Assembly: GCA_049511795.1 (NCBI GenBank)
Contig: JBEKXS010000001.1
Coordinates: 58,514-122,513 of the forward strand
Reading direction: 5' to 3'
Source of the DNA: Candidatus Pacearchaeota archaeon
GTDB lineage: Archaea; Nanobdellota; Nanobdellia; Pacearchaeales; GW2011-AR1
DNA: 64,000 bases
Position numbers and translations under genes: made by a program. Below are positions 9,633-63,867 of this stretch, in pieces (the stretch's first letter is position 1; each line of letters starts with the position of its first letter). The notes beneath the pieces are model-generated. The model worked only from the letters and a program-made list of their open reading frames with translations, was not told where the DNA came from and searched no databases.

Positions 9633-9860
9633 TTTTTTTATTTTTTAATATCTGTGTTGCGTTTTTTTGTTAGTTAGAAAAATAATAAAGATGAGTCCCT
9701 AAAGGGGAGGATTTATTCGAATATTATAAAGTTTTTACTAATTCTAGAATCTTAAAGAAAGGTTTTAAAAGCCAGTTATTTATAATAAAATCATGACAGC
9801 AATGTCCGATTACCGGCATAATTAGAAAAGATTTCTTTAGCTGTCGCTATTTTTCTGACA

Positions 9861-9874
9861 AGGTTTTTATACCA
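9861..9874 (+). promoter_or_regulatory. BRE/TATA-like box (AAGGTTTTTATACC) about 28 bp upstream of tRNA-His
   Basis: TTTTTATA centred about 26-28 nt before the tRNA 5' end, the typical archaeal spacing. Confidence 0.35.
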
Positions 9875-9895
9875 TTTTCACCTGAATTAAATAAT

Positions 9896-9967
9896 GGCGG
9901 TTGTAGTATAATGGCAGTACGTGCGGTTGTGGTCCGCAAGAAGAGAGTTCGATTCTCTCCTTCCGCC
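9896..9967 (+). tRNA. tRNA-His (GUG) with encoded G-1:C73. Acceptor stem carries two U-U mismatches.
   Basis: Cloverleaf folded by hand. D-stem GTAT/GTAC with GG in the loop. Anticodon arm TGCGG-TTGTGGT-CCGCA. T-arm GAGAG-TTCGATT-CTCTC. Extra 5' G pairs with discriminator C. Lies immediately upstream of hisS. Confidence 0.55.
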
Positions 9968-20119: not shown

Positions 20120-20847
20120 GCCGCGAACCAGTCAACATCGAAAAGCCGAAATATCTGCCAATAACAAAGAAGGCAATTCTTTTTGACTCTGGACCAATAA
20201 TAAGCTTCGCGATGAATGGAATGACAGGAGTTTTTCGCGAATTAAAAAAGATTTTCAGGGGAAAATTCATAATAACAAATGAAGTCAAGAGTGAGGTAAT
20301 TGATGTTCCCTTAAGGATAAAAAGATTTGAGCTTGAAGCATTGATGATAAAAAGACTTCTTGATGAAGGGGTTTTTGAGCTGCCAACTTCGCTTGATGTC
20401 AAGGATTCTGAAATTGAAAAAATAGATCAGGAATTTCTCAATACCGCAAACTCAACTTTCAATGGTGATGGAAAGGACATACATATTCTGGACCATGGAG
20501 AATCCTCATGCCTTGCATTGAGCAAAATCCTGAATGAAAAAGGAGTGAAAAACATAATAGCAATTGATGAGAGAACAACAAGACTTCTAGTTGAAAAGCC
20601 CGACAATCTTAAGGAACTTTTTGAGGAAAGATTTCACACAAAAATAAAAATGGATTCAGAAAAAACAAAAATGTTTACCAATTTCAAGATCATCCGCTCC
20701 CCTGAGCTTGCATATGTTGCATACAAAAATAACCTTCTTGGAATAAAAGACGGAAAAACAATCCTTGATGCTGTTCTTTATTCAATGAAATTCAAGGGAG
20801 CTTCGATTTCCGGCGAGGAAATCGAGCAGATAAAAAGCATTGGATAA
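20116..20847 (+). CDS. Hypothetical protein, PIN-like N-terminal half
   Basis: AILFDSGPIIS plus a later ILDHGESSCLALS...IIAIDE acidic pattern reminiscent of the PIN fold. Confidence 0.3.
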   Translation: MSREPVNIEKPKYLPITKKAILFDSGPIISFAMNGMTGVFRELKKIFRGKFIITNEVKSEVIDVPLRIKRFELEALMIKRLLDEGVFELPTSLDVKDSEIEKIDQEFLNTANSTFNGDGKDIHILDHGESSCLALSKILNEKGVKNIIAIDERTTRLLVEKPDNLKELFEERFHTKIKMDSEKTKMFTNFKIIRSPELAYVAYKNNLLGIKDGKTILDAVLYSMKFKGASISGEEIEQIKSIG

Positions 20848-20883
20848 AAGCTTTTAAAAATCAATTACTTCTTCTAAAAATAA

Positions 20884-37808: not shown

Positions 37809-38147
37809 ATGAAAACAGCAAAAGTCAAAACAAAGGGTGTTACAGAGCTGTCAGGAAATGAATTTCCTGATTTCACAAAAAAAGGCACTGTTCTTGTTGA
37901 TTTTTTTGCAGACTGGTGCATGCCATGCCTCATGATGGCTCCTGTAATGGAAGAACTTTCTGAAAAATTCACAGGAAAGATAAAATTCGCAAAAATAAAT
38001 GTTGATGAGAACCAGCAGATTTCACACAAATTCAAGGTCATGTCAATACCAAATTTCATTCTTTTCAAGGACGGCAAGCCAATTGACCAGTTTATAGGCT
38101 CAATGCCGATGGAAGATTTCGAGGAAAAGCTGAAAAGGCATCTGTAA
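37809..38147 (+). CDS. trx: Thioredoxin
   Basis: WCMPC active site in FFADWCMPCLMMAP. 112 aa. Confidence 0.7.
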   Translation: MKTAKVKTKGVTELSGNEFPDFTKKGTVLVDFFADWCMPCLMMAPVMEELSEKFTGKIKFAKINVDENQQISHKFKVMSIPNFILFKDGKPIDQFIGSMPMEDFEEKLKRHL

Positions 38148-38160
38148 TTATTCTTAGTAG

Positions 38161-38175
38161 AAAGCTTTTTTAAAC
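38161..38175 (+). promoter_or_regulatory. AAAGCTTTTTTAAAC BRE/TATA-like box upstream of tRNA-Lys
   Basis: Same palindromic motif as upstream of tRNA-Trp (20847..20860) and of 22728 (22687..22700). About 25-35 nt before the mature 5' end. Confidence 0.35.
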
Positions 38176-38198
38176 ATCATTTTATTTATTGAGCTAAC

Positions 38199-53897: not shown

Positions 53898-56087
53898 ATG
53901 GCAGACAAAGAAACACAGTTTGAAAAAATAAAAAGAATTAGCAGTCAGCAAAAACATATTCGTAACATTGCAACTTCTGCGCACATTCACCACGGGAAAA
54001 CTGCATTGACAGATAATCTTTTGGCAGCTTCAGGGCATATGGCTGCAAAATCTGCAGGAGACCTTGAGGCAGGAATGGCAACATGGCAGCACTTAGATGA
54101 ACAGGAAAGGCTTATGACAGTTGATTCTGCAAACGTTTCAATGGTTCACAATTTCCATGGAGATGAATATTTAATCAATCTTATCGACACTCCAGGGCAT
54201 GTTGATTTCTCAGGAAATGTTACAAGAGCTATGAGGGCTATTGACGGAACAATTGTTCTTGTATGCGCTGTCGAGGGAATAATGCCGCAAACAGAGACAG
54301 TAATCAAGCAAGCATTGAGAGAAAGAGTAAGGCCTGTTCTTTTCATAAACAAAGTTGACCGTTTAATCAAAGAATTGAAATTAAATCCAGAACAAATGCA
54401 GAAAAGATTTGTTGATATTTTCCATGAGTTCAATGATCTTATAAGAAAAATAGCTGACGAAGATTTTAAGGAAAAATGGCAGGTTGATATCAAAGATGGG
54501 AGCGTTGCATTTGGATCAGCTAGGGAAAACTGGGCTCTCTCAGTACCATTCATGGAGAAAAAAGGAATCACATTCAAGGATATTTTCAAACTTTATGAAA
54601 TGGATGAAGAGCATAAAAAAGAATGGGTTTGGAAAAATGCGCCTCTTTATGAAGTTCTTCTTGATATGGTAGTAAAGCATCTTCCAGATCCATTGGAAGC
54701 GCAAAAATATAGGATACCAAAAATCTGGCACGGAGAAATTGATTCTGATTTTGGAAAAGGATTAATTCACTGCGACCCAAAAGGAAAAGTCGCTTTTGTC
54801 ATAACAAGAATTGTCATCGATCCAAGAAGCGGAAAAGAAATTTCAGCAGGAAGACTTTTTTCAGGAACATTGCAGACAGGTCAGGAAGTTTATCTTAACC
54901 TTGCAAAGAAAAAACAAAAAATACAGCAGCTTTTCATTTATGATGGAGTAAAACCAGAGCAAATAGAGCATATAGGACCTGGAAATGTTCTTGCAATCTC
55001 TGGGGTTACAGGAGAAGCTGGAGAAACAGTAACTCTTGAGCCAGAAACTCCATTTGAAGAATTAAAGCACATATTTGAGCCTGTTATTACAAAAGCTATT
55101 GAAGTTACAAAAACTGCAGATCTTCCTAAACTCGTTGATATTTTGAAAAAAGTTGCTAAAGAGGATCCTTCTATAAAAATTGAAATTAACGAGCAGACAG
55201 GAGAATCATTGATGAGCGGAATGGGAGAATTGCATCTTGAAATCATAGAAAACAGAATAAGAACAGAGAAAGGACTTGAAGTAAAAACTTCACAGCCAAT
55301 TGTTGTTTACAGGGAAACAACAGGAAAAGAATCTCCTTCTGTTGAAGGAAGAAGTCCTAACAAGCATAACAGCTTTTTCATAAGTGTTGAGCCTCTTGAA
55401 GACAAAATTTACGAGGCAATAAAATCAGGCGAGTTGCGTGAAGGAAGAGTCAAGAAAAAGAGCGATGAGCTTGCAAAGGTTCTTTCAAAACTTGGATGGG
55501 ACGGAGACCAGATAAGAGCGATAAGGGATGTTTACAAGGGAAATATTTTCACAGATGAAACAAGAGGAGAAGTTCATATTGGAGAAGTAATTGATATGGT
55601 TCTTGATGCTTTTGAAATGGTTATGGACCAAGGTCCTATAGCAAGAGAACCATGCATGAAGATGAAAGTATCATTAACAGACATAAAGCTTCATGAAGAC
55701 GCAATCCACAGAGGTCCTGCACAGGTTTATCCTGCTGTAAGAGAAGCAATAACAGAGGCAATGAAGAAAGGTGGAGCTTTCCTTCTTGAGCCAATGCAAA
55801 TTCATGTTATTGATATCCCTGAAAAATTCCTCGGAGAAGTCACAAAACTCGTCGGAGGAAAAAGAGGGCAAATGCTTGAAATCAGACACACAGACAGCGG
55901 AACAGAAGTTGAGGCAAAGCTTCCTGTTGCCGAAATGATTGGTTGGAGCTCGGACTTAAGGTCTGCAACAGAAGGAAGAGGAACAAGCTCACTACTGGAT
56001 CAAAGTTTTGAAAAAATGCCTCAGAACCTTCAGCCAGATGTAGTAAGAAAAATCAGACAAAGAAAGGGTTTAGCTGAGAACCAGTAG
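53898..56087 (+). CDS. fusA: Translation elongation factor 2 (aEF-2)
   Basis: G-domain (AHIHHGKT, DTPGHVDF, NKVDR). Diphthamide-site AIHRGPAQ. 729 aa. Confidence 0.9.
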   Translation: MADKETQFEKIKRISSQQKHIRNIATSAHIHHGKTALTDNLLAASGHMAAKSAGDLEAGMATWQHLDEQERLMTVDSANVSMVHNFHGDEYLINLIDTPGHVDFSGNVTRAMRAIDGTIVLVCAVEGIMPQTETVIKQALRERVRPVLFINKVDRLIKELKLNPEQMQKRFVDIFHEFNDLIRKIADEDFKEKWQVDIKDGSVAFGSARENWALSVPFMEKKGITFKDIFKLYEMDEEHKKEWVWKNAPLYEVLLDMVVKHLPDPLEAQKYRIPKIWHGEIDSDFGKGLIHCDPKGKVAFVITRIVIDPRSGKEISAGRLFSGTLQTGQEVYLNLAKKKQKIQQLFIYDGVKPEQIEHIGPGNVLAISGVTGEAGETVTLEPETPFEELKHIFEPVITKAIEVTKTADLPKLVDILKKVAKEDPSIKIEINEQTGESLMSGMGELHLEIIENRIRTEKGLEVKTSQPIVVYRETTGKESPSVEGRSPNKHNSFFISVEPLEDKIYEAIKSGELREGRVKKKSDELAKVLSKLGWDGDQIRAIRDVYKGNIFTDETRGEVHIGEVIDMVLDAFEMVMDQGPIAREPCMKMKVSLTDIKLHEDAIHRGPAQVYPAVREAITEAMKKGGAFLLEPMQIHVIDIPEKFLGEVTKLVGGKRGQMLEIRHTDSGTEVEAKLPVAEMIGWSSDLRSATEGRGTSSLLDQSFEKMPQNLQPDVVRKIRQRKGLAENQ

Positions 56088-56141: not shown

Positions 56142-57848
56142 TTACTTAGGTCTAATTTTAGGCCTCATTACTGCTATTACACCTGCAATAAGACCAATTG
56201 CAACTAGAATTATTATTATAATTCCTACAGGACTTCCCAATGCTCCGATTACTCCACCTGTTATTGGTGCTGGAGTATTAGTTGCAGCTCCTGTTATTGG
56301 AGCTCCACCGCCGGCTGCTGTTGTTGCAGGATTAGTTGTTGGTGTTGTTGCTACAGGTGCTGTTACATATGTTCCTCCATAAGCATTTCCACCGCCACCA
56401 CCATTTGAAGGAGGAGGGGATGTTATTTGAGCATTACATAAATCTGAAGTTAAATAATCATTAGAACCTTGAGAAGTTAATTGTAAAAGAGTACAACTAT
56501 TAGCAGCACTATTATACTCATAATAAGGTTTTGTCACATTCAAAATTACAGTTACTGTTTGTCCGCTGACTGTTCCTGTGTATGTGTATGTTCCTGCTGG
56601 ATAGTTGTCATCAATAACTAAAGATTTACTCCCTAATCCAAGAGCATACTGAAATCCATCAATTAAAGCATAATTTCCTGCACCATCAGAAGTCAAGTAG
56701 AAGAAGGGTGAAGTTCCTATAATCTCATTGCCAATTTGAGTTTGCATAGCTGGAATCCAACCTGATTTAGCTGCAAAGTAATTTGTTAAGGTTGTTTGCT
56801 GTGTGCTGTTAGCTGCTAGAGAAAATGCGTATTTATTATTTGGTAATGGACCATTGGTAACTATTACATTACTAACATTTAATGTGTAGCAAGCATTAGT
56901 ACCATTATTCGTTCCACTGCAAGAACCAGAATCAGTTGTTGCAAGAGTGGCTCCAGAAAGAGTACCAATTGATACGGCGTTGCTGGTAATAGTTGCGGAT
57001 GTTAATATTGGTGTTGGTACTGTTGGTGAGTTTACAATTCCACCAGTTCCAGTGAATGTAACAGCAGTCTGAGACAGAGCCATTCCATTTAGTGTTGCAC
57101 CATTCAAATTAATATAGGTTGATGGTCCTGCTAATATTACTCCCTCAAAAACTGAAGTACTCTGAAGTTCAGCATATGCACCTGCAACAGTCCAGAATAT
57201 GTTTTGAGACTGACAAGCTCCAGTTAATGTAATCTGAGTATTGCTTCCTACAGTGAGGTCACCTGCTATTTGGAAGATAAATGTATCAGAAGAATCTGGA
57301 CAATAAAGTGTAACACCCTTCACATCCCCATTAGCAATATTGTGAGGATTACCAGCATTTATTAATAGTCCATTTGACCATTTGTAAAGACCAGGTGTTA
57401 ATGTCATCCCACTAATATCTCCAGCTCCTAATTCAGTAGCGGTAGGAGTTCCCTCACCTGTACCTGATGCTGTATTATAAGCAGTTTGCATATCACCTGC
57501 TGCATTAGTTACTAGAGCAGGAGTTGCACCTCCACCTGCTATTCCTGTATAATCATATGCATACATCTTTTCAGACACTAAAGATGATGTCGCAAAGTTA
57601 AGTGAAGAATCCATTGTTTGGCTAAACCCTGTAAAAGCAGTACTAGTGACTCCTTGACCTAATCCAATATTTCCAACAATTGAAGTGATTCCAGCAGCTG
57701 AAATACCTGTATCTGCAAAAACAGCAAAATTACCTGATGCTCCAAGACTAGGTAGTGCTGGACCAGCTGCTGTAACAGAAAATGCAGATAAAAGAATTGC
57801 TACAGAGAGCAATGCGAAAATTAAAAACTTTGATTTATTATTTGTCAT
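56142..57848 (-). CDS. Secreted DUF3494 (ice-binding-protein-like) family surface protein with C-terminal TM anchor
   Basis: Signal peptide. GNIGLGQGVTSTAFTGF...TATELGAGDISGMTLTPGLYKWS blocks typical of DUF3494. C-terminal hydrophobic helix plus RPKIRPK. Confidence 0.55.
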   Translation of the reverse strand: MTNNKSKFLIFALLSVAILLSAFSVTAAGPALPSLGASGNFAVFADTGISAAGITSIVGNIGLGQGVTSTAFTGFSQTMDSSLNFATSSLVSEKMYAYDYTGIAGGGATPALVTNAAGDMQTAYNTASGTGEGTPTATELGAGDISGMTLTPGLYKWSNGLLINAGNPHNIANGDVKGVTLYCPDSSDTFIFQIAGDLTVGSNTQITLTGACQSQNIFWTVAGAYAELQSTSVFEGVILAGPSTYINLNGATLNGMALSQTAVTFTGTGGIVNSPTVPTPILTSATITSNAVSIGTLSGATLATTDSGSCSGTNNGTNACYTLNVSNVIVTNGPLPNNKYAFSLAANSTQQTTLTNYFAAKSGWIPAMQTQIGNEIIGTSPFFYLTSDGAGNYALIDGFQYALGLGSKSLVIDDNYPAGTYTYTGTVSGQTVTVILNVTKPYYEYNSAANSCTLLQLTSQGSNDYLTSDLCNAQITSPPPSNGGGGGNAYGGTYVTAPVATTPTTNPATTAAGGGAPITGAATNTPAPITGGVIGALGSPVGIIIIILVAIGLIAGVIAVMRPKIRPK

Positions 57849-57881
57849 TTTGTTTTTTTGATTAAATTAAAGAGAATAAGG

Positions 57882-57923
57882 GAGTATATATGCTGGCGCG
57901 GTAGCCATACATAATTGTTGTAT
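57882..57923 (-). promoter_or_regulatory. Conserved 42-bp upstream element with a GC-rich box and ATATATAC TATA-like core. Near-identical copy at 62639..62680.
   Basis: GAGTATATATGCTGGCGCGGTAGCCATACATAATTGTTGTAT on the plus strand (about 38 of 42 positions identical to the second copy). Lies 34-75 nt upstream of the minus-strand ATG at 57848. Confidence 0.4.
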
Positions 57924-57967
57924 ATGCTAGTACTTCTCTTTGTATAAAAAATAAAGAATAAGAAATC

Positions 57968-58927
57968 TTAGTTTGATATTGTTACAGCGTTGTATTGCAA
58001 TGTAACAGCTGTTTGTGCCAATGCTCTACCATTCAGTATTGCGCCAGTGTTTAGTGCAATATTTGTTTGATCTAAAATATTCCCTTGGAAGTTAGATGTT
58101 GTTCCAAGTGTTGTTGTTCCAGCAACCTGCCAGAAAATGTTCTTTGGTCGGCAACTACCACTTAAAGCAATCATTGCGCCATTACCTACAGTAAGAGTTT
58201 GTGCTATTTGGAAAATAAAGACAGCATTCGTATTGCCTCCACAGTTAAGAGTAACACCAGTTGGTATTGTCAATCCAGTACTCCATTTGTATAGTCCAGG
58301 TGTTAGTGTCATCCCATCAATATTTCCAGCTCCAAGTTCAGTAGCAGTAGGGTTTGTCCTTCCAGCTGCGTCAGTATATGCTGTTTGCATATCGCTTATA
58401 GCTGTACCTATATTAATAGGAGTAGGGGGTGAATAATCTGATGCATATACTTTTCCAGTAACTAAAGATGATGTTGAAAATGTATTAGAAGAATCCATTG
58501 TTAATCCAAATCCAGTAATAGCAGTTGAGGTGATTGGACTAACTCCAATGTTTCCAGTGATTGAAGTTGTTCCAGTTGTTGATATTCCTGTTTTTGCTAA
58601 TATAACAAAATTACCTGCTGTTCCAAGATTTACTGCTGCAGGACCTGATGCACCAGTTGTTGCGTTACCTGAAGTTCCTCCAGACGAACCAGAACTTCCT
58701 CCGCTACTTCCACCACTACTTGTTCCTCCAGAAGTCCCACCTGATGTTCCGCCAGAACTTGTTCCTCCTGAATTTCCAGTAGTTCCAGTTCCTCCTGTTG
58801 AAGGAGTTCCTGTTGTAGGAGTACCTGTTGAAACAGAAGGTGTACTATAATTTGAATATATTAAATAACCTAAAACTATAACTACTACAATCAAAATAAC
58901 CCAGCCCCATAAACCTCTTTTATTCAT
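57968..58927 (-). CDS. DUF3494 (ice-binding-like) family protein with N-terminal TM anchor and Gly/Ser/Thr-rich linker. Paralog of 56142..57848.
   Basis: NLGTAGNFVILAKTGISTTGTTSITGNIGVSPITSTAITGF and TATELGAGNIDGMTLTPGLYKWS blocks shared with the paralog. Confidence 0.55.
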   Translation of the reverse strand: MNKRGLWGWVILIVVVIVLGYLIYSNYSTPSVSTGTPTTGTPSTGGTGTTGNSGGTSSGGTSGGTSGGTSSGGSSGGSSGSSGGTSGNATTGASGPAAVNLGTAGNFVILAKTGISTTGTTSITGNIGVSPITSTAITGFGLTMDSSNTFSTSSLVTGKVYASDYSPPTPINIGTAISDMQTAYTDAAGRTNPTATELGAGNIDGMTLTPGLYKWSTGLTIPTGVTLNCGGNTNAVFIFQIAQTLTVGNGAMIALSGSCRPKNIFWQVAGTTTLGTTSNFQGNILDQTNIALNTGAILNGRALAQTAVTLQYNAVTISN

Positions 58928-58978
58928 ATTATTTATTAATAAATTTTTATATTTAAATACTTTTTGTTGTATATCTTA

Positions 58979-60151
58979 TTACTTCTCTTTTATCATTCTT
59001 TGCTTTAAAGAAGTGAATACTTTGCTGATTATGGGTACTGTTATTTTTGGTTTTTCAGGTTTATGAAATTTCTCTATTTTATCGTGCCTTTGTTTAAAGG
59101 TTTCAAAATAGGTTAAGAGTAATGGTAATAATATAGGTCCGATGAATATTCCAGGAACCCCAAACATGGTGGCTCCGCCTATGACACCTATGATTACAAC
59201 TATTTGACTTACCTTGGTTTTTGTTTTTGAATGCACTATCTTCGCAAGTAGAATACTATCAATGGTACCTATTATAACAAGGCAGTAGAAGAATAGTCCT
59301 ATTCCTCTATACATGAGCCCATAATCATGAGAAAGATAACCACTTATAACCATAAATAGCGAGATAGGTACCCATAAAATTGCTGTTCCAATAGTTGGAA
59401 TCAAAGCAGCGAAAGCCATCACAAGTCCTAAGATTATCGGAAGAGGAACACCAAATATGTAAAATCCTATAGTTCCTAAGACTCCCTGGACGAATGCAAC
59501 AAATAATTGTGCATAAACTACTGTATGGGTTATATCTCCGAATTCCGTGATAAGTCTTTTTGTTGTCTTTTTTCTCATTGGGAGTATATTCTCTATTTTT
59601 TTTAATATATTCTCCCAGTCTTTTAGGATAAAGAATGACATAACTAATGCAAGAATAATTTCTGCGATTATGATAGGTATAGTAAGAATAAAGGTTGCTA
59701 TTTTTTCCTCCAAAATAGGAAGTAGTTTCTGCAGTTGCGTGTTAAATCCAAATGCTGACAATCGGTCTAAGCTAAATTTTTCTATGTGGTTAATAACAGA
59801 ACATAATGTTGAGTTTGCACTAGTGCATCCGATACCAAAGAGTTGTCCCTTCGCAATATTATTTGATAATGAACTGTAAAGAGCAGATCCTTGCTGTGTA
59901 ACTTCGAATGCTAAGAAAGCGAATGGAATTAATACAATAATTACAATAATGAACAGAGATAAAATAATTGAAAGAGATTTATAGGGTATCTTTTTATTTA
60001 TTTTAGTATACAGAGGAAAAGCAATATAAGAGAGAATTGTGCTGCTTAAAAGAATAGTTATCATAGGCCTGACAAGGAAGAATAACAGAATTAATGCCAG
60101 CACAAACATTATGAACGGGACTACTTTTTGATACTGGTTTTGGATTGCCAT
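58979..60151 (-). CDS. AI-2E family (PerM/UPF0118) membrane transporter
   Basis: 390 aa, about 8 TM helices, characteristic AI-2E pattern and length. Confidence 0.55.
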   Translation of the reverse strand: MAIQNQYQKVVPFIMFVLALILLFFLVRPMITILLSSTILSYIAFPLYTKINKKIPYKSLSIILSLFIIVIIVLIPFAFLAFEVTQQGSALYSSLSNNIAKGQLFGIGCTSANSTLCSVINHIEKFSLDRLSAFGFNTQLQKLLPILEEKIATFILTIPIIIAEIILALVMSFFILKDWENILKKIENILPMRKKTTKRLITEFGDITHTVVYAQLFVAFVQGVLGTIGFYIFGVPLPIILGLVMAFAALIPTIGTAILWVPISLFMVISGYLSHDYGLMYRGIGLFFYCLVIIGTIDSILLAKIVHSKTKTKVSQIVVIIGVIGGATMFGVPGIFIGPILLPLLLTYFETFKQRHDKIEKFHKPEKPKITVPIISKVFTSLKQRMIKEK

Positions 60152-60172
60152 TGTGTAAATGGTAACGAGAAT

Positions 60173-60658
60173 TTACCTTGCCTGGGTTTCACCAGGAGAT
60201 GCTAAAATTGAGTCTCCTTTATTTTCTGAGTCCCCTTCTGAAAATCTATAGTGCCTTGTTATTTTTATTTTGGCAGTATCTTCAATAACGTCCCCTGATT
60301 TGTCAGGCAGTAAGCTCATATTGTTAATATCTATTCCCTGAATTTCTATCTCAACTTTTCTGACGCTTGAGTGGTTTGGTGTTAAAACAATTGTTTTGTG
60401 GTCGGGTCCCCATTTTTTCTCGAATGTTCCTGAAGTGTAATTAAATTTAGACAAAGGTATGTTTGGAATATCTGAGATATTGGCTTTGAGATATATTATG
60501 TAGTCTCCGTAGGTCATTATAGGTATTGTACCTTTCCCTTCTGCCTCACTGGCTTTTTCAAAGGCTTCTGCATTCTTCCTATGTATATAGTACAAGCTGT
60601 CTTTTTCATTTATGCAGTTTGTTATTTCATCTATTTTGTCTTCTTTTGTCTGTTCCAT
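60173..60658 (-). CDS. Hypothetical protein
   Basis: 161-aa ORF. Confidence 0.3.
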   Translation of the reverse strand: MEQTKEDKIDEITNCINEKDSLYYIHRKNAEAFEKASEAEGKGTIPIMTYGDYIIYLKANISDIPNIPLSKFNYTSGTFEKKWGPDHKTIVLTPNHSSVRKVEIEIQGIDINNMSLLPDKSGDVIEDTAKIKITRHYRFSEGDSENKGDSILASPGETQAR

Positions 60659-60751
60659 TATATTACTCCGAAATATTTAAGCAAAACAAATCCACCGATT
60701 AATGCAAGTATGAAAAATATTACGCCTCCAACAGATCCTTGTTTGTTCATT

Positions 60752-61045
60752 TTATTTTTTAAATAAGTCATTTTTTTTATTTCTACCAACCAAATAATAA
60801 ATTATTGCTGTTATTATGCTAAAAAATATGGCTAATACAACCCAAAGAACTTTCATTCCGTCAGATAGTCTCTTGTTATTTACAAGTACATCATAAATAA
60901 CCCATATTGCTGCTATAACTGCTATAATCATAAATAACAGACCAAATCCATATCCACCCATCATTCCAAATCCGAAGCCTCCAAATAATAGTAAAACTAA
61001 AACAACTATTAATATAATCATTAAAGTTTTATTTTCGTTTTTCAT
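60752..61045 (-). CDS. PLDc_N-domain small membrane protein
   Basis: WVIYDVLVNNKRLSDGMKVLWVVLAIFFSIITAIIYYLVGR resembles the PLD nuclease N-terminal (PLDc_N) motif. Two TM helices. Confidence 0.4.
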   Translation of the reverse strand: MKNENKTLMIILIVVLVLLLFGGFGFGMMGGYGFGLLFMIIAVIAAIWVIYDVLVNNKRLSDGMKVLWVVLAIFFSIITAIIYYLVGRNKKNDLFKK

Positions 61046-61055
61046 TTTTTATTGT

Positions 61056-61175
61056 TTAAGTCCTCATTATATTTCTTCCAGCGGGCCTGTTTTTTACATG
61101 ACCTTTTCCGCCCTTTCCCTTTCTAGCTCTTGCCTTTGCTGCCTTCATTCTTCCGCCTCTGCTTTTTTTTGCCAT
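61056..61175 (-). CDS. Very basic 39-aa micro-protein (MAKKSRGGRMKAAKARARKGKGGKGHV...)
   Basis: Hand-found ORF. K/R/G-rich like small ribosomal or nucleic-acid-binding peptides. Confidence 0.2.
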   Translation of the reverse strand: MAKKSRGGRMKAAKARARKGKGGKGHVKNRPAGRNIMRT

Positions 61176-61228
61176 TTTTTGTTTTTTACTCCTGTTTAAT
61201 TTTTAGATTATGATTATTTAATTTATAA

Positions 61229-61564
61229 TTACCTTGTTCTTGTTGTTGTAGTTGTTACTGAAGTTCCACTCGGCAATGCTGCTCTTCTTGATCTTCTCCG
61301 TGTTGAACGCCTATGATATGCAGTTCTTCCTCTTGGTCCTCTAGGTCCTTGGACTACTCTTGTTGGACCGGAACTTGCTAAACCAATAACTAATAATAGG
61401 AAACCAATAATTGCAGATGCATATGCCCATCCTACAGGAATAGTTACATTAGCAGATGAACTATTTGAATTTACACCGGCTTGAATATTCTGGAAAGGTA
61501 CAAAATAGAACAATCCTCCAAGAACTAGAAAAATTACTCCAAATATAATCAGGCTTGCTTTCAT
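61229..61564 (-). CDS. Membrane protein with Arg/Thr-rich C-terminal tail
   Basis: Two TM helices, then GPRGPRGRTAYHRRSTRRRSRR...TTTTTRTR. Confidence 0.3.
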   Translation of the reverse strand: MKASLIIFGVIFLVLGGLFYFVPFQNIQAGVNSNSSSANVTIPVGWAYASAIIGFLLLVIGLASSGPTRVVQGPRGPRGRTAYHRRSTRRRSRRAALPSGTSVTTTTTRTR

Positions 61565-61619
61565 TTTGTTCTCCTTTCTTGTTTTTTCATTTTATTTAAA
61601 ATTATGAAGTGTGATATTT

Positions 61620-61817
61620 CTAAGCTGCTTTTATTGTATGAGCTATTACCGAAATTATGAACAGTATTACAAAAATTATTGCTAGCCACTTTGCTATTGT
61701 TAATGAAACTCCTGAAATAAGCCCGAATCCAAATATTGCAGAGACTATTGCTATAATTAAGAATATAACTGCCCAAGCCAACCAACCAACTGTTCCTTGT
61801 TTGTTCATTTTATTCAT
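61620..61817 (-). CDS. DUF1328 (UPF0391) small membrane protein
   Basis: WLAWAVIFLIIAIVSAIFGFGLISG...AKWLAIIFVILFIISVI matches the DUF1328 two-helix pattern. Confidence 0.45.
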   Translation of the reverse strand: MNKMNKQGTVGWLAWAVIFLIIAIVSAIFGFGLISGVSLTIAKWLAIIFVILFIISVIAHTIKAA

Positions 61818-61928
61818 TTTTTATACTTTATGTTAAATCTGTTATGATATATATAGTCGCGCTGTATGAACCCATACTCTTAATCTGAATGTTAAGTTCT
61901 AAAAAATAATTATAATTAAAAAAATTAA

Positions 61929-62303
61929 TTAAAACTTTTCATCACCGCAAAAATATAATCTTTCATTTATTATTTTATTATCTTTCCAGTGCTGAACATT
62001 TACCCTGTGAATTATTTTCTCTTTTTTATTTTTATCTTCAATGTTTATAGCCCATTCTGTCATTGAAATATTATCATCAACTCCCCCAAAAGTAACAGAT
62101 TTTATTTCAGCGCTGTTTAATTTTTCTATTTCCTTAAGAAATATGGTTTCTCTCTTTCTGTTATTTTCTTTTCCGTTTATGGGAAGATTTCCATTTACCT
62201 GTGTAATTACTTCATCTCCGTAATATTTTTCAAATGCTTCCAAAAGCTTGCCGTCCCTAATTAAAGCATTCAATTTTTCTACGTTATTTTTTAGTTTTAT
62301 CAT
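61929..62303 (-). CDS. NTF2/SnoaL-like fold protein (tentative)
   Basis: 124 aa. An N-terminal helix then a beta-rich pattern suggests an NTF2-like domain. Confidence 0.3.
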   Translation of the reverse strand: MIKLKNNVEKLNALIRDGKLLEAFEKYYGDEVITQVNGNLPINGKENNRKRETIFLKEIEKLNSAEIKSVTFGGVDDNISMTEWAINIEDKNKKEKIIHRVNVQHWKDNKIINERLYFCGDEKF

Positions 62304-62324
62304 TTTCTTGGATAAAAATATTTT

Positions 62325-62600
62325 TTAGGTGAAAATAAAAAGGGCTTCAACTGCCAAAACAATCAGCAGTCCTAAAACTACGACTAAGACCATATTCGTA
62401 TTTCTGTCTTTCACTTCTCTTCTATTGTCGGTTATATCATCATTTCTTAATCTGTTCTCTCCCATAGTTCTATCTGCTTTGGATCTTCTTTCTGCAGTTA
62501 ATTCGTCATTTCTAAATCGACTATCTTTCATTGTCTTGTCTGCCGTTTCTCTTTTGTCCGTAGTTACCACATCATTCTTCATTCTTTGCGTATTTGTCAT
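62325..62600 (-). CDS. Small membrane-anchored protein with tandem charged peptide repeats
   Basis: Repeats DKTMKDSRFRNDELTAERRSKA / DRTMGENRLRNDDITDNRREVK, then a C-terminal TM helix. Confidence 0.35.
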   Translation of the reverse strand: MTNTQRMKNDVVTTDKRETADKTMKDSRFRNDELTAERRSKADRTMGENRLRNDDITDNRREVKDRNTNMVLVVVLGLLIVLAVEALFIFT

Positions 62601-62638
62601 TTTTTTCTTTCCTCCATTGCATTATATCATAATCAAAA

Positions 62639-62680
62639 GAGTATATATGCTGGCGCTGTAGCAAGACATAATTGTTGTAT
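62639..62680 (-). promoter_or_regulatory. Second copy of the conserved 42-bp upstream element (see 57882..57923), 39-80 nt upstream of the ATG at 62600
   Basis: GAGTATATATGCTGGCGCTGTAGCAAGACATAATTGTTGTAT. A GGAGG RBS follows before the ATG. Confidence 0.4.
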
Positions 62681-62706
62681 GAGAAAATACTTTATCGTGT
62701 AAAAAT

Positions 62707-63483
62707 TTATACTACTTTTTTAGAATAATCCCAAAGAATGCCATAAAAATCAAGATATTCTTTTGCAATAACATCATTTTCTATTACAATTGTATAAATA
62801 GGATCAATCCAAAGAGTGATATAAACAGAGCCATTGCAGACTACATGGGTTATTTGGGAAGTTTTAGCCTGCTGAGTTTTAGGTAAAAGCCTTGCTTCTG
62901 TAAATTTTAAGTTGCTGAGCGTTTTAACTTCTTCATGAGGAAGCTTATAAAAAAGAAGTTTAAGCTCAATATGATTTTTTATTCTTTCAAGATGGAAAGA
63001 ATTCATTAATCTATCATTAAGAACATTGATTATGCTCTCATTTTCTGCAAGACCATAAATCCAGATATCTGATTTTTTTTCCAAGAGACCGAATAAAATG
63101 CTTTTTACGGCATTTAATCCTTCTAAAGTATAAACTTTGGGCGTATGACCAGACACAAAAGTTGTTTTTATGAATTCCATTGCTGTTTTTAGATTTTCCA
63201 ATTTATCTTTTTCTTCATTAATAATCAAGTCTGTTGCTAAAGCGGCAAATACCTGCTTTCCTTCTTTGTTGGACAAATAAACCAGATTTCTTTCCTTAAG
63301 CTTTGTTAAGGTGTCATATACATTAGCCCTATGCATGCCTGTTCTTTTTGAAATCTGTGTTGCAGTAGATTCCTTGTTTTTTAGCAAATCAAGGTAAACA
63401 GTAGTCTGCATTTTAGGGATGCCTACTGATTCAAAAGCTTTCAAGATATGTTCGTCTACCATTTTATTTTTAAGTGTTTTCAC
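62707..63483 (-). CDS. TrmB-family transcriptional regulator
   Basis: N-terminal wHTH (KMQTTVYLDLLKNKESTATQISKRTGMHRANVYDTLTKLKERNLV) and a TrmB-like C-terminal domain. Confidence 0.5.
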   Translation of the reverse strand: MKTLKNKMVDEHILKAFESVGIPKMQTTVYLDLLKNKESTATQISKRTGMHRANVYDTLTKLKERNLVYLSNKEGKQVFAALATDLIINEEKDKLENLKTAMEFIKTTFVSGHTPKVYTLEGLNAVKSILFGLLEKKSDIWIYGLAENESIINVLNDRLMNSFHLERIKNHIELKLLFYKLPHEEVKTLSNLKFTEARLLPKTQQAKTSQITHVVCNGSVYITLWIDPIYTIVIENDVIAKEYLDFYGILWDYSKKVV

Positions 63484-63531
63484 TATATATTTTTTTTGGT
63501 TTGAGTAAATAATAAAATCAATAAAAAATTT

Positions 63532-63867
63532 TTAATTCAGTTTTACAGCAGTGCCGTAGGCAAGAATTTCTGATGAGCCGCGCATTATTGAGGAAGCATC
63601 AAATCTCATTGCAATTATTCCATCTGCTCCCATCTTGATTGCATTGTTTATCATTCTGTTATATGCCTCATCACGTGACTGGTTTATCAATTCTGTAAAT
63701 GTCTCTATTTCTCCGCCGACAAGACTCTTAAGCCATGCCATGATATCTCTTCCAAGATTTCTGCTTCTTACAGTATTTCCCCTAACAACTCCAAGAATTT
63801 TTTTAACTTTTCTGCCTGGAATATCATTCATTGTCACAGCAGTGATACCTTTGCTATCTTGTGCCAT
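63532..63867 (-). CDS. YbjQ/UPF0145 (DUF74) family protein
   Basis: ITAVTMNDIPGRK...GADGIIAMRFD pattern typical of UPF0145. Confidence 0.55.
   Translation of the reverse strand: MAQDSKGITAVTMNDIPGRKVKKILGVVRGNTVRSRNLGRDIMAWLKSLVGGEIETFTELINQSRDEAYNRMINNAIKMGADGIIAMRFDASSIMRGSSEILAYGTAVKLN

Follow-up and report, generated by a model that had tools for sequence, protein, structure and literature searches.

The minus strand of the Pacearchaeota DNA analysed here (the window, 64,000 nucleotides with a G+C content of 35 % and an archaeal EF-2 gene) carries several copies of a sequence module that probably acts as a factor-controlled promoter and defines a local regulon. This reading, which is drawn from sequence comparison, is given a probability of roughly 70 %. 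The module would be a cis-regulatory unit of about 55 bp, made up of an archaeal core promoter and the operator boxes in front of it. In the proposed core, the TATA box ATATATAC has a non-canonical GC-rich sequence in the place of the BRE, and the boxes AAAGT, CATACAAC, TTAT, and CTAC(T) lie upstream. A conserved gene cluster of Pacearchaeota lies directly downstream of a gene for a TrmBL2-like regulator, and one copy would drive the first transcription unit of this cluster. Variants of the module would drive units within the cluster, namely those of DUF1328 and ice-binding-like genes. Because several units would be driven in this way, the cluster genes would make up a small local regulon. The trans factor would most likely be the adjacent regulator.

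An earlier note on this DNA had pointed to a near-identical 42-bp element at 57882-57923 and 62639-62680. These coordinates are right. On the plus strand the two stretches are identical at 39 of 42 positions and differ at three. They are direct repeats, 4757 bp apart. The 24-mer GAGTATATATGCTGGCGCKGTAGC occurs exactly twice in the 64 kb, even when up to three mismatches are allowed, and is found in none of 100 dinucleotide-preserving shuffles. Without gaps, the similarity of the two copies extends over 61 nt at 80 % identity (57875-57935 and 62632-62692), or over 67 nt at 79 % by another comparison, and it is lost beyond the 61-nt stretch. Since nothing similar remains outside these 61 nt, the module is a discrete unit rather than the end of some longer repeat.

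The functional orientation of the module is that of the minus strand. Read in this direction, the general layout is AAAGT-N8-CATACAAC-N2-TTAT-N6-CTAC-N-(GC-rich 8-mer)-ATATATAC, with a length of about 55 bp. The two long copies in the window share the form ...AAGTA-N7-ATACAACAATTATGT-NNN-GCTAC-N-GCGCCAGC-ATATATAC-TC. Both precede a minus-strand ATG, as had been noted: the end of the TATA-like ATATATAC lies 35 nt from the ATG at 57848 (a DUF3494 gene) and 40 nt from the ATG at 62600 (the repeat-peptide gene). The two downstream genes are indeed non-homologous, one coding for an Ice_binding/DUF3494 protein and the other for a 91-aa repeat protein without a Pfam match. The copy in front of the repeat-peptide gene is called the home copy below (copy 2 of the earlier note) and the copy in front of the DUF3494 gene the secondary copy (copy 1). 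Their scores with a position weight matrix (PWM) are 53 for the home copy, obtained by leave-one-out, and 46 for the secondary copy. Table 1 is a collection of the features in the window.

Table 1. Module copies and genes of the cluster in the window
Feature	Position	Strand	Remarks
Home copy (earlier copy 2), predicted promoter/operator module	62640..62695	-	Present in 8/8 pattern-independent loci and in 11 metagenome loci
Home copy, boxes	AAAGT 62693-62689; CATACAAC 62681-62674; TTAT 62671-62668; CTAC 62661-62658	-	
Home copy, core	GC-rich 8-mer at BRE position 62656-62649; TATA-like ATATATAC 62648-62641	-	
Secondary copy (earlier copy 1), upstream of DUF3494_1	57883..57938	-	Orthologous copies in L027 and L031
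Secondary copy, boxes	AAGT 57936-57932; (T)ATACAAC 57924-57917; CTAC 57904-57901	-	
Secondary copy, core	GC 8-mer 57899-57892; ATATATAC 57891-57884	-	
Third, shortened copy, upstream of DUF1328 gene	61846..61881	-	AAGAGTATGGGTTCATACA-GCGCGACT-ATATATATC
Partial copy, upstream of DUF3494_2	58964..58988	-	AGAGAAGTAATAAGATATACAACAA; upstream part only
TrmB-family (TrmBL2-like) regulator gene, candidate trans factor	62707..63483	-	Pfam TrmB wHTH
Home target gene, 91-aa protein	62325..62600	-	Three 22-aa charged repeats and a C-terminal TM helix; no Pfam match
124-aa conserved protein gene	61929..62303	-	21 nt after home gene
DUF1328 small membrane protein gene, putative target of the short-form copy	61620..61817	-	
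DUF3494/ice-binding-like surface protein gene (DUF3494_1), putative target of the secondary copy	56142..57848	-	

The genes concerned lie in a minus-strand block that reaches from 56142 to about 63867 and sits between EF-2 and EF-1alpha. Proteins identical to those encoded here occur on metagenome contigs of up to several hundred kb; together with the archaeal EF-2, the 'Nanoarchaeota' MAG and the annotation of regulator homologs given below, they identify the source as a DPANN archaeon of the Pacearchaeota type. For the home gene, a GGAGG Shine-Dalgarno sequence follows 26 nt after the end of the TATA box. The gene for the 124-aa protein is probably part of the same transcript, and at locus L032 it is the first gene behind the module. 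The cluster also contains PLDc_N and the AI-2E permease. Gene content suggests a possible role of the cluster in the envelope or in stress, with a home product that would be hydrophilin-like and tail-anchored.

Further copies are found within the cluster. The third copy in the window lacks about 20 nt between the CATACA and CTACA boxes. A search for GCGC-N4-WTATATA gives three matches in the 64 kb, compared with a mean of 0.02 in shuffled sequence, and all three belong to the regulator's cluster and are minus-strand sites with an ATG 36-41 nt downstream. In relatives, the DUF1328 gene is preceded by the short form at L030 and by the long form at L019. The partial copy overlaps the stop codon of the AI-2E permease gene, and the TATA sequence behind it is another one, of the ordinary A/T-rich kind. 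This copy is evidently what remains from a tandem duplication that took in both the DUF3494 gene and the region upstream of it. The small regulon proposed earlier from two genes is thus supported and extended to at least three promoters in the window; the third and the partial copy had been missed.

Copies in other genomes show a similar range of targets. The module stands upstream of ice-binding-like genes in three genomes, namely in the window, at L027 (13969-14025), and at L031 (12687-12725), where it is more diverged. At L029 it precedes a small Cys-rich gene of 111 aa, and at L010 a second copy precedes a gene for a UDP-glucose/GDP-mannose dehydrogenase. In the loci scanned, additional copies are confined to the same cluster and the same strand. 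A leave-one-genome-out PWM scan of both strands, covering about 224 kb (+/-10 kb around each locus), recovered every home copy. Its only other matches are the copy at DUF3494_1 in the window and those at L027 and L029, all on the same strand and no more than 5 kb downstream of the TrmB gene; within this sequence there were no matches elsewhere or on the opposite strand. A profile search with nhmmer gave the same distribution of copies. The scope of these scans is the +/-10 kb around each locus, from which more distant members of the regulon would escape.

Relatives of the home copy were collected in several ways. A scan of the genome collection with a core of 20 specified bases found one relative only, at L010 in a MAG labelled 'Nanoarchaeota', where the module precedes the repeat-peptide ortholog directly after a TrmB-like gene. 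A metagenome scan with the shared 19-mer gave 16 loci. Eleven of these are real and five are chance matches in unrelated GC-rich DNA. Since at all 11 real loci the module lies 39-48 nt upstream of repeat-peptide orthologs, this gene reads as the ancestral 'home' of the module. The 19-mer is located inside the module, and the conservation of that stretch in 11 of the 20 home sequences is therefore circular. Because the metagenome scan selects for the 19-mer in this way, a second sample was built via the regulator protein. It provides eight loci on different contigs (L027-L034), which together with the window form an unbiased set of nine sequences. Claims of conservation are based on this set only.

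At all eight loci sampled via the regulator protein, the module directly follows the TrmB-family gene. The same cluster also recurs at all eight: the TrmB-like gene is followed by a small protein, the 124-aa protein, DUF1328, further genes, a 161-aa protein, and the AI-2E permease. Its neighbourhood varies among loci and includes EF-1alpha/EF-2, the RNA polymerase operon, S10, RadA, and an aminoacyl-tRNA synthetase gene (tRNA-synt_2). The consensus of the nine unbiased genomes is AAaGT.T.ttc.CATACAAC.aTTAT.....gCTACTgC.C.A..ATATATACT, without indels. Conservation is block-wise, with CATACAAC, TTAT, CTACT, and ATATATACT as near-invariant boxes. The mean pairwise identity of the module is 0.67. 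For comparison, the 4-fold synonymous sites of the neighbouring gene, which is itself very conserved, give 0.54, and sequence further upstream gives 0.36. The sequence conservation of the module, its position, and its co-occurrence with the regulator gene are direct observations.

Spacing indicates which gene the module serves. The distance from module to ATG is 32-47 nt for home copies and long-form secondary copies, and 23 nt for the diverged DUF1328 copy at L019. The gap between module and TrmB stop codon varies between 58 and 187 nt. The next gene may differ while the module is kept; it codes for the 124-aa protein at L032 and for DUF2188 at L033. Because the spacing to the ATG is steady, the spacing to the TrmB stop is variable, and the next gene can be exchanged, the module belongs to the downstream gene. 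The earlier view that the conservation is regulatory rather than coding agrees with the orthologous position in eight of eight pattern-independent relatives, the tracking of the downstream ATG, and the absence of indels and of RNA structure. Among the loci read, the module goes with the tight orthologous group of the regulator. At the single locus read from a more distant relative, where the regulator homolog is 54 % identical, the module is absent; since the neighbouring gene there is convergent, this locus does not bear on whether module and regulator vary together.

The module has features of a promoter. The A/T-rich 8-bp ATATATAC lies at a distance from the gene start that is compatible with a transcription start about 23-27 bp downstream. 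From the end of the TATA box to the GGAGG sequence there are 26 nt in both orthologous promoters measured (the home copy of the window and L010 4551-4613); the sequence in between has diverged and the spacing is the same. This spacing fits a transcription start some 20-25 nt beyond the TATA box. The earlier note had proposed a transcription-factor site plus TATA box, with a GC-rich box as part of the site. This proposal is supported, but the GC box turns out to be the least conserved part across relatives, where it occurs as GCGCCAGC, GCTCTAGC, GCTTTAGC, or ACACCAGA.

Other promoters of the organism look different. Three tRNA genes are preceded by RAAAG-cTTTTwAAA, which ends 24-27 nt before the mature 5' end. 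The regulator's own promoter, compared at 10 loci, is the canonical GATAAAAC-TATATAAT and lies 19-22 nt before the ATG of the 251-aa form. This short distance means that the regulator transcript would have no leader. Translation then probably begins at the ATG at 63462, which gives the 251-aa form, and the GTG annotated as the start at 63483 is probably an error. The purine-rich BRE of the organism's other promoters is absent from the module, which has GCGCCAGC, GCTCTAGC, ACACCAGA, and similar sequences there instead. The missing A-rich BRE suggests that the module depends on a factor to recruit TFB/TBP.

The regulator gene adjoins the module at all loci for which the upstream flank is available. 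In the window it ends 66 nt upstream of the end of the home copy's TATA box, and so lies immediately upstream of that copy as first described. The NVYDT sequence of the protein aligns with RVYDT of P. furiosus TrmB (3QPH), which holds the DNA-contact pair Tyr50-Asp51, and the Tyr-Asp pair is invariant in 20 orthologs. More than 120 clusters of relatives at 78 % identity or above were found, annotated as Pacearchaeota or Nanoarchaeota; when the library was clustered at 50 % identity, the protein next in similarity had 54 % identity, and no other exceeded 34 %. An AF2 model built on a deep alignment has a pLDDT of 92.7. It replaces an earlier model from a shallow alignment, whose C-terminal domain (pLDDT 49) was unusable. 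The top Foldseek matches of the new model are TrmBL2 structures over the full length (5BPD, 5BOX, 5BPI, 5BQT), followed by TrmB. The order of domains is wHTH, long helix, and a PLD-like C-terminal domain, without the sugar-binding subdomain. Structural matches to the last domain are NucT (6EHI) and, in TrmB, the first part (subdomain) of the effector-binding domain (2F5T); the Pfam effector-binding domain was found in none of 60 relatives scanned. As modelled, the regulator is TrmBL2-like in fold.

TrmBL2 (PF0496/TK0471; PDB 5BPD, 5BOX) is an archaeal chromatin protein and global repressor whose binding to coding as well as intergenic DNA shows little specificity. Over the full length, it is the structure that matches the regulator best (E about 2e-12). 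The two proteins are close in length (251-258 aa here, 264 aa in TrmBL2), and the regulator shares with TrmBL2 the domain order, the absence of an effector sugar site, and a very high conservation within its clade. Unlike TrmBL2, with which its sequence identity is only 11-14 %, the regulator is encoded in strict synteny with one module that is predicted to be sequence-specific. Because of the TrmBL2-like fold, a global or chromatin role is possible. Between the window and L027 the regulator is 88 % identical, EF-2 87 %, and the home gene product 51 %, and conservation at the level of EF-2 could stem from a global role instead of from control of the neighbouring cluster. A regulator gene next to its targets in conserved synteny is in itself no proof of a regulator-target relation. 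The chance that the adjacent protein is the specific factor of the module is put at about even, within the higher probability given above to the module and its regulon, because TrmBL2 is a chromatin protein of low specificity.

Most characterised TrmB-family operators are palindromes. The palindromic form (TACT-Nx-AGTA or a TGM inverted repeat) was searched for and is absent here: no inverted repeat of at least 4 bp is conserved in at least 80 % of the 20 home copies, and only direct TACT/ATAC repeats are. The module instead has three direct TAC(T/A) boxes with spacings of 19 and 17 bp, the last of which is part of the TATA box, together with the CATACAAC and TTAT boxes. TrmB-family operators on record are built on TACT half-sites; one of these operators overlaps BRE/TATA (repression), and others lie upstream of it (activation) (PMC4158304). 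P. furiosus TrmB binds TACT-N3-AGTA overlapping BRE/TATA at malE, the H. salinarum TrmB site is TACT-N7-8-GAGTA, TrmBL1/Tgr uses TGM sites, and the activator MalR of S. acidocaldarius binds two direct ATAATACT repeats (PMC4158304). The direct repeats of MalR are a precedent for non-palindromic boxes such as those of the module. As in TrmB-family promoters, a gene for a wHTH protein with the Tyr-Asp pair adjoins its presumed targets, and TAC(T) boxes lie upstream of BRE/TATA as well as overlapping it, to which the rule that site position decides between activation and repression may be applied. By analogy, the CTACT and ATATATACT boxes loosely fit TrmB-family operators. Unlike in these systems, the regulator has no sugar-binding subdomain, and its presumed targets are small membrane, envelope or stress-like proteins rather than enzymes of sugar metabolism.

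Two other kinds of archaeal and mobile promoters can be compared with the module. Activator-dependent promoters with weak BRE/TATA are known for Ptr2 of M. jannaschii and TFB-RF1/PF1088 of P. furiosus (PMC4158304). Like these, the module has a non-consensus BRE with conserved sites immediately upstream; unlike these, it would be served by another regulator family, and activation is here a prediction. Putative mobile promoters (PMPs) have been defined (Matus-Garcia, Nijveen & van Passel 2012; PMC3488235) as upstream stretches of 50-100 nt that share at least 80 % identity within one genome, lie before genes that are non-homologous, and are not riboswitches, IS or MITEs. The pair in the window shows 61 nt at 80 %, unrelated downstream genes, no Rfam match, and no terminal inverted repeats or dispersed copies. 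As with PMPs, copying has put the module in front of different genes, independently from lineage to lineage. Unlike PMPs, the copies remain in one cluster beside the regulator gene and are conserved across genomes. This copying pattern looks like regulon growth rather than random promoter mobility.

Several other explanations have to be weighed against a factor-controlled module. The module could be a specialised promoter class read by the basal machinery alone, with an alternative TFB/TBP or as a strong constitutive promoter, without a dedicated regulator and with the TrmBL2-like neighbour as a general chromatin protein. The fold match to a chromatin protein, the EF-2-like conservation of the regulator, the lack of a palindromic operator, and the semi-conserved sequence at the BRE position (gC.C.A..) all speak for this case. 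Yet the conserved boxes reach about 50 bp upstream of the TATA box, far past a BRE, the module is restricted to one cluster beside the regulator gene at eight of eight unbiased loci with differing surroundings, and the housekeeping promoters read here carry a different, A-rich BRE. We consider this explanation unlikely. It is also conceivable that the likeness of the copies reflects only recent DNA copying or gene conversion, as in a putative mobile promoter, with no selected shared regulation. The pair fits the definition of a PMP, an independent copy has reached the dehydrogenase gene at L010, and the tandem DUF3494 duplication took upstream sequence along. Moreover, the two long copies in the window agree at 37 of 40 positions, while the secondary copy and its L027 ortholog agree at 33 of 40 (counted by eye); this closer likeness within the genome suggests that some recent copying or gene conversion has occurred besides selection. 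Copying accounts for the origin of the copies, however, and not for their maintenance: the DUF3494-associated copy is kept in three genomes and retains the invariant boxes despite diverged variable positions (the L027 pair and L031), and the DUF1328 copies are old and diverged and still keep their boxes. As a full explanation, copying alone is quite improbable.

A structured RNA, such as a 5' leader or riboswitch, a small RNA, or an antisense RNA, would also give high non-coding conservation, and the nearly palindromic TATA-like sequence could in principle let the other strand fire too. RNAalifold on 20 orthologs predicts no pairs in the sense direction, and in antisense only a hairpin of -2.2 kcal/mol with almost no covariation; the window has no Rfam match at gathering thresholds. 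The conserved part furthermore lies upstream of the inferred start, and the stretch from TATA box to Shine-Dalgarno sequence is the variable one, which leaves an RNA very improbable. Equally little is to be said for the two direct repeats as att-site ends of a mobile or integrated element, or as MITE copies. They lie 4757 bp apart, the neighbourhood of the cluster differs among genomes, and in the window the cluster splits the EF-2/EF-1alpha operon. However, there is no integrase or transposase between or beside the copies and no tRNA gene nearby, a scan of the viral collection gave no matches, the position of the second copy varies among genomes, the third copy lies in between, and the intervening genes are a conserved cluster. 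There are also no terminal inverted repeats, and the two or three copies per locus are all in promoter position on one strand. A few further candidates were tried and rejected. The sequence ...CCGCGCCA superficially resembles the 3' end of a tRNA, which would suggest a tRNA fragment, a split-tRNA half or an att site; neither ARAGORN nor Rfam has a match there, no flanking 'T-arm' is present, and the copies do not agree at the putative D-arm positions. No C or D boxes of a C/D-box sRNA are visible in the sequence. A genome-wide repeat or MITE is contradicted by the profile and PWM scans, which gave no copies outside the cluster in the loci scanned. An ORB box of a replication origin was rejected because there is no orc1/cdc6 gene in the vicinity and the spacing between module and gene start is fixed.

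The preferred reading is thus a promoter module under the control of a factor. As the purine-rich BRE of this organism's ordinary promoters is missing from the module, the factor would help to recruit TBP/TFB, which amounts to activation. Repression by occlusion of the BRE/TATA region would fit the sequence equally well; we infer both which factor acts and whether it activates or represses. The secondary copies would have arisen by copying of the module, in part through tandem gene duplication, and would then have been kept by selection. A bolder version of this mechanism, which we offer tentatively and hold to be rather doubtful as a whole, is that the TrmBL2-like protein, with an evolutionary rate as low as that of EF-2 across Pacearchaeota, is a sequence-specific master regulator. 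It would activate a dedicated class of BRE-less promoters, those of an envelope or stress cluster, through the three direct TAC(T/A) boxes, which extend into the TATA box, and its regulon would grow as the ~55-bp module is copied to new genes.

The kind of module is familiar, since a transcription factor beside targets that share an upstream motif is a standard arrangement. This particular regulon appears to be previously undescribed, and no earlier description of it was found in the literature. To our knowledge, next to nothing has been learned about how DPANN archaea regulate their genes, since these organisms are uncultured and their small genomes encode few transcription factors. The module, the adjoining regulator gene and the cluster offer a concrete and testable candidate regulon that is conserved across many Pacearchaeota. 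They also give a picture of promoters in this lineage, in which ordinary promoters with an A-rich BRE and TATA box stand against special, BRE-less ones with upstream boxes, and they document an archaeal case of a promoter module copied onto unrelated genes. If the bolder version were true, the module would be among the first defined cis-regulatory codes in DPANN archaea, and its regulator would be a sequence-specific counterpart of the chromatin protein TrmBL2.

In archaea, the genes for S12, S7, EF-2 and EF-1alpha usually follow one another in an operon. In the window this operon is split, because the whole TrmB-like cluster sits between EF-2 and EF-1alpha on the opposite strand (53898-56087, +; 56142-63867, -). 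The same placement, again on the opposite strand, can be found in L027, one of the relatives' loci sampled via the regulator protein. In other Pacearchaeota the cluster adjoins RNA polymerase genes, S10, RadA or an aminoacyl-tRNA synthetase gene (tRNA-synt_2). Across the loci compared (the window, L001, L027, L028, L030, L032 and L034), the cluster appears to move as one unit. The YbjQ/DUF74 gene and the 59-aa ORF, possible members of the cluster, occur in the near-identical strains and are absent from most relatives.

The TrmBL2-like regulator is conserved like EF-2: the window and L027 share 88 % identity in the former and 87 % in the latter. Among the proteins compared (P0001-P0120 and P0121-P0270), it belongs to a tight group with at least 78 % identity, divided from a large family of the same length by a gap in identity (54 %, then 34 % or less). 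Its C-terminal domain, which lies outside Pfam coverage, is PLD-like and matches NucT 6EHI.

The regulator gene's own promoter is canonical, with an A-rich BRE followed by TATATA(A/G)T. In 10 loci the BRE/TATA lies 19-22 nt upstream of the ATG of the 251-aa form, a spacing that implies that the mRNA is leaderless. The GTG at 63483, with which the 258-aa ORF opens, overlaps the TATA box and is unlikely to be used; translation likely starts at the ATG at 63462.

In a single relative, L017, the regulator's own promoter resembles the element, the ~55-bp putative promoter/operator of the home gene. It reads AATACAAC...CTACC...TATATATAT and lies 19 nt upstream of the ATG. Such a promoter could reflect autoregulation of the regulator in that lineage, or the resemblance could be due to chance. 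Chance is also how matches to the 19-mer CTACNGCGCCAGCATATATA, a stretch inside the element, were treated in L012, L014, L016, L018 and L023. These loci were rejected as copies of the element: they are unrelated, GC-richer contigs, and the flanks of the 19-mer show no similarity. L014, L016, L018 and L023 come from different metagenomes and share one identical sequence around the 19-mer; the matches are taken to lie in some common organism.

Features discussed in the text (window coordinates, except for L017)
Feature	Position	Strand	Remarks
YbjQ/DUF74 ("putative heavy-metal-binding") gene and 59-aa ORF	63532-63867	-	just upstream of regulator gene, same orientation
Regulator gene	62707-63483	-	
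Regulator promoter	63460-63499	-	
Element-like promoter, L017	~120 nt, end at ~4600	-	directly upstream of L017 TrmB-like gene
Home gene	62325-62600	-	product has three 22-aa charged repeats, then C-terminal transmembrane helix
DUF3494/ice-binding-like paralogs	56142-57848, 57968-58927	-	tandem
Duplicated stretches upstream of the DUF3494 paralogs	57915-57939, 58964-58988		
Upstream regions of three tRNA genes	9827-9896, 20814-20883, 38129-38198	+	

The two DUF3494 paralogs share nucleotide repeats (73-77 %), and the unit that was duplicated also took in the final codons of the AI-2E gene upstream. The full promoter module and the ancestral signal peptide are still present in DUF3494_1. In DUF3494_2 the TATA box is an ordinary one and the N-terminus is new, consisting of a TM helix and a Gly/Ser/Thr-rich linker.

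The repeats of the home protein follow the pattern R-x-[KR]-N-D-x-x-T-x-x-R-R-x-x-A-D-[KR]-T-M. Orthologs are 71-123 aa long with a variable number of repeats, and some are missing the TM helix. The product, which recalls hydrophilins or LEA-type proteins, has no match in Pfam or NCBIfam.

Upstream of the three tRNA genes, a clean consensus for promoters of this organism emerges: RAAAG-cTTTTwAAA, with its end 24-27 nt ahead of the mature 5' end. This consensus is a useful yardstick for any promoter call within the window.
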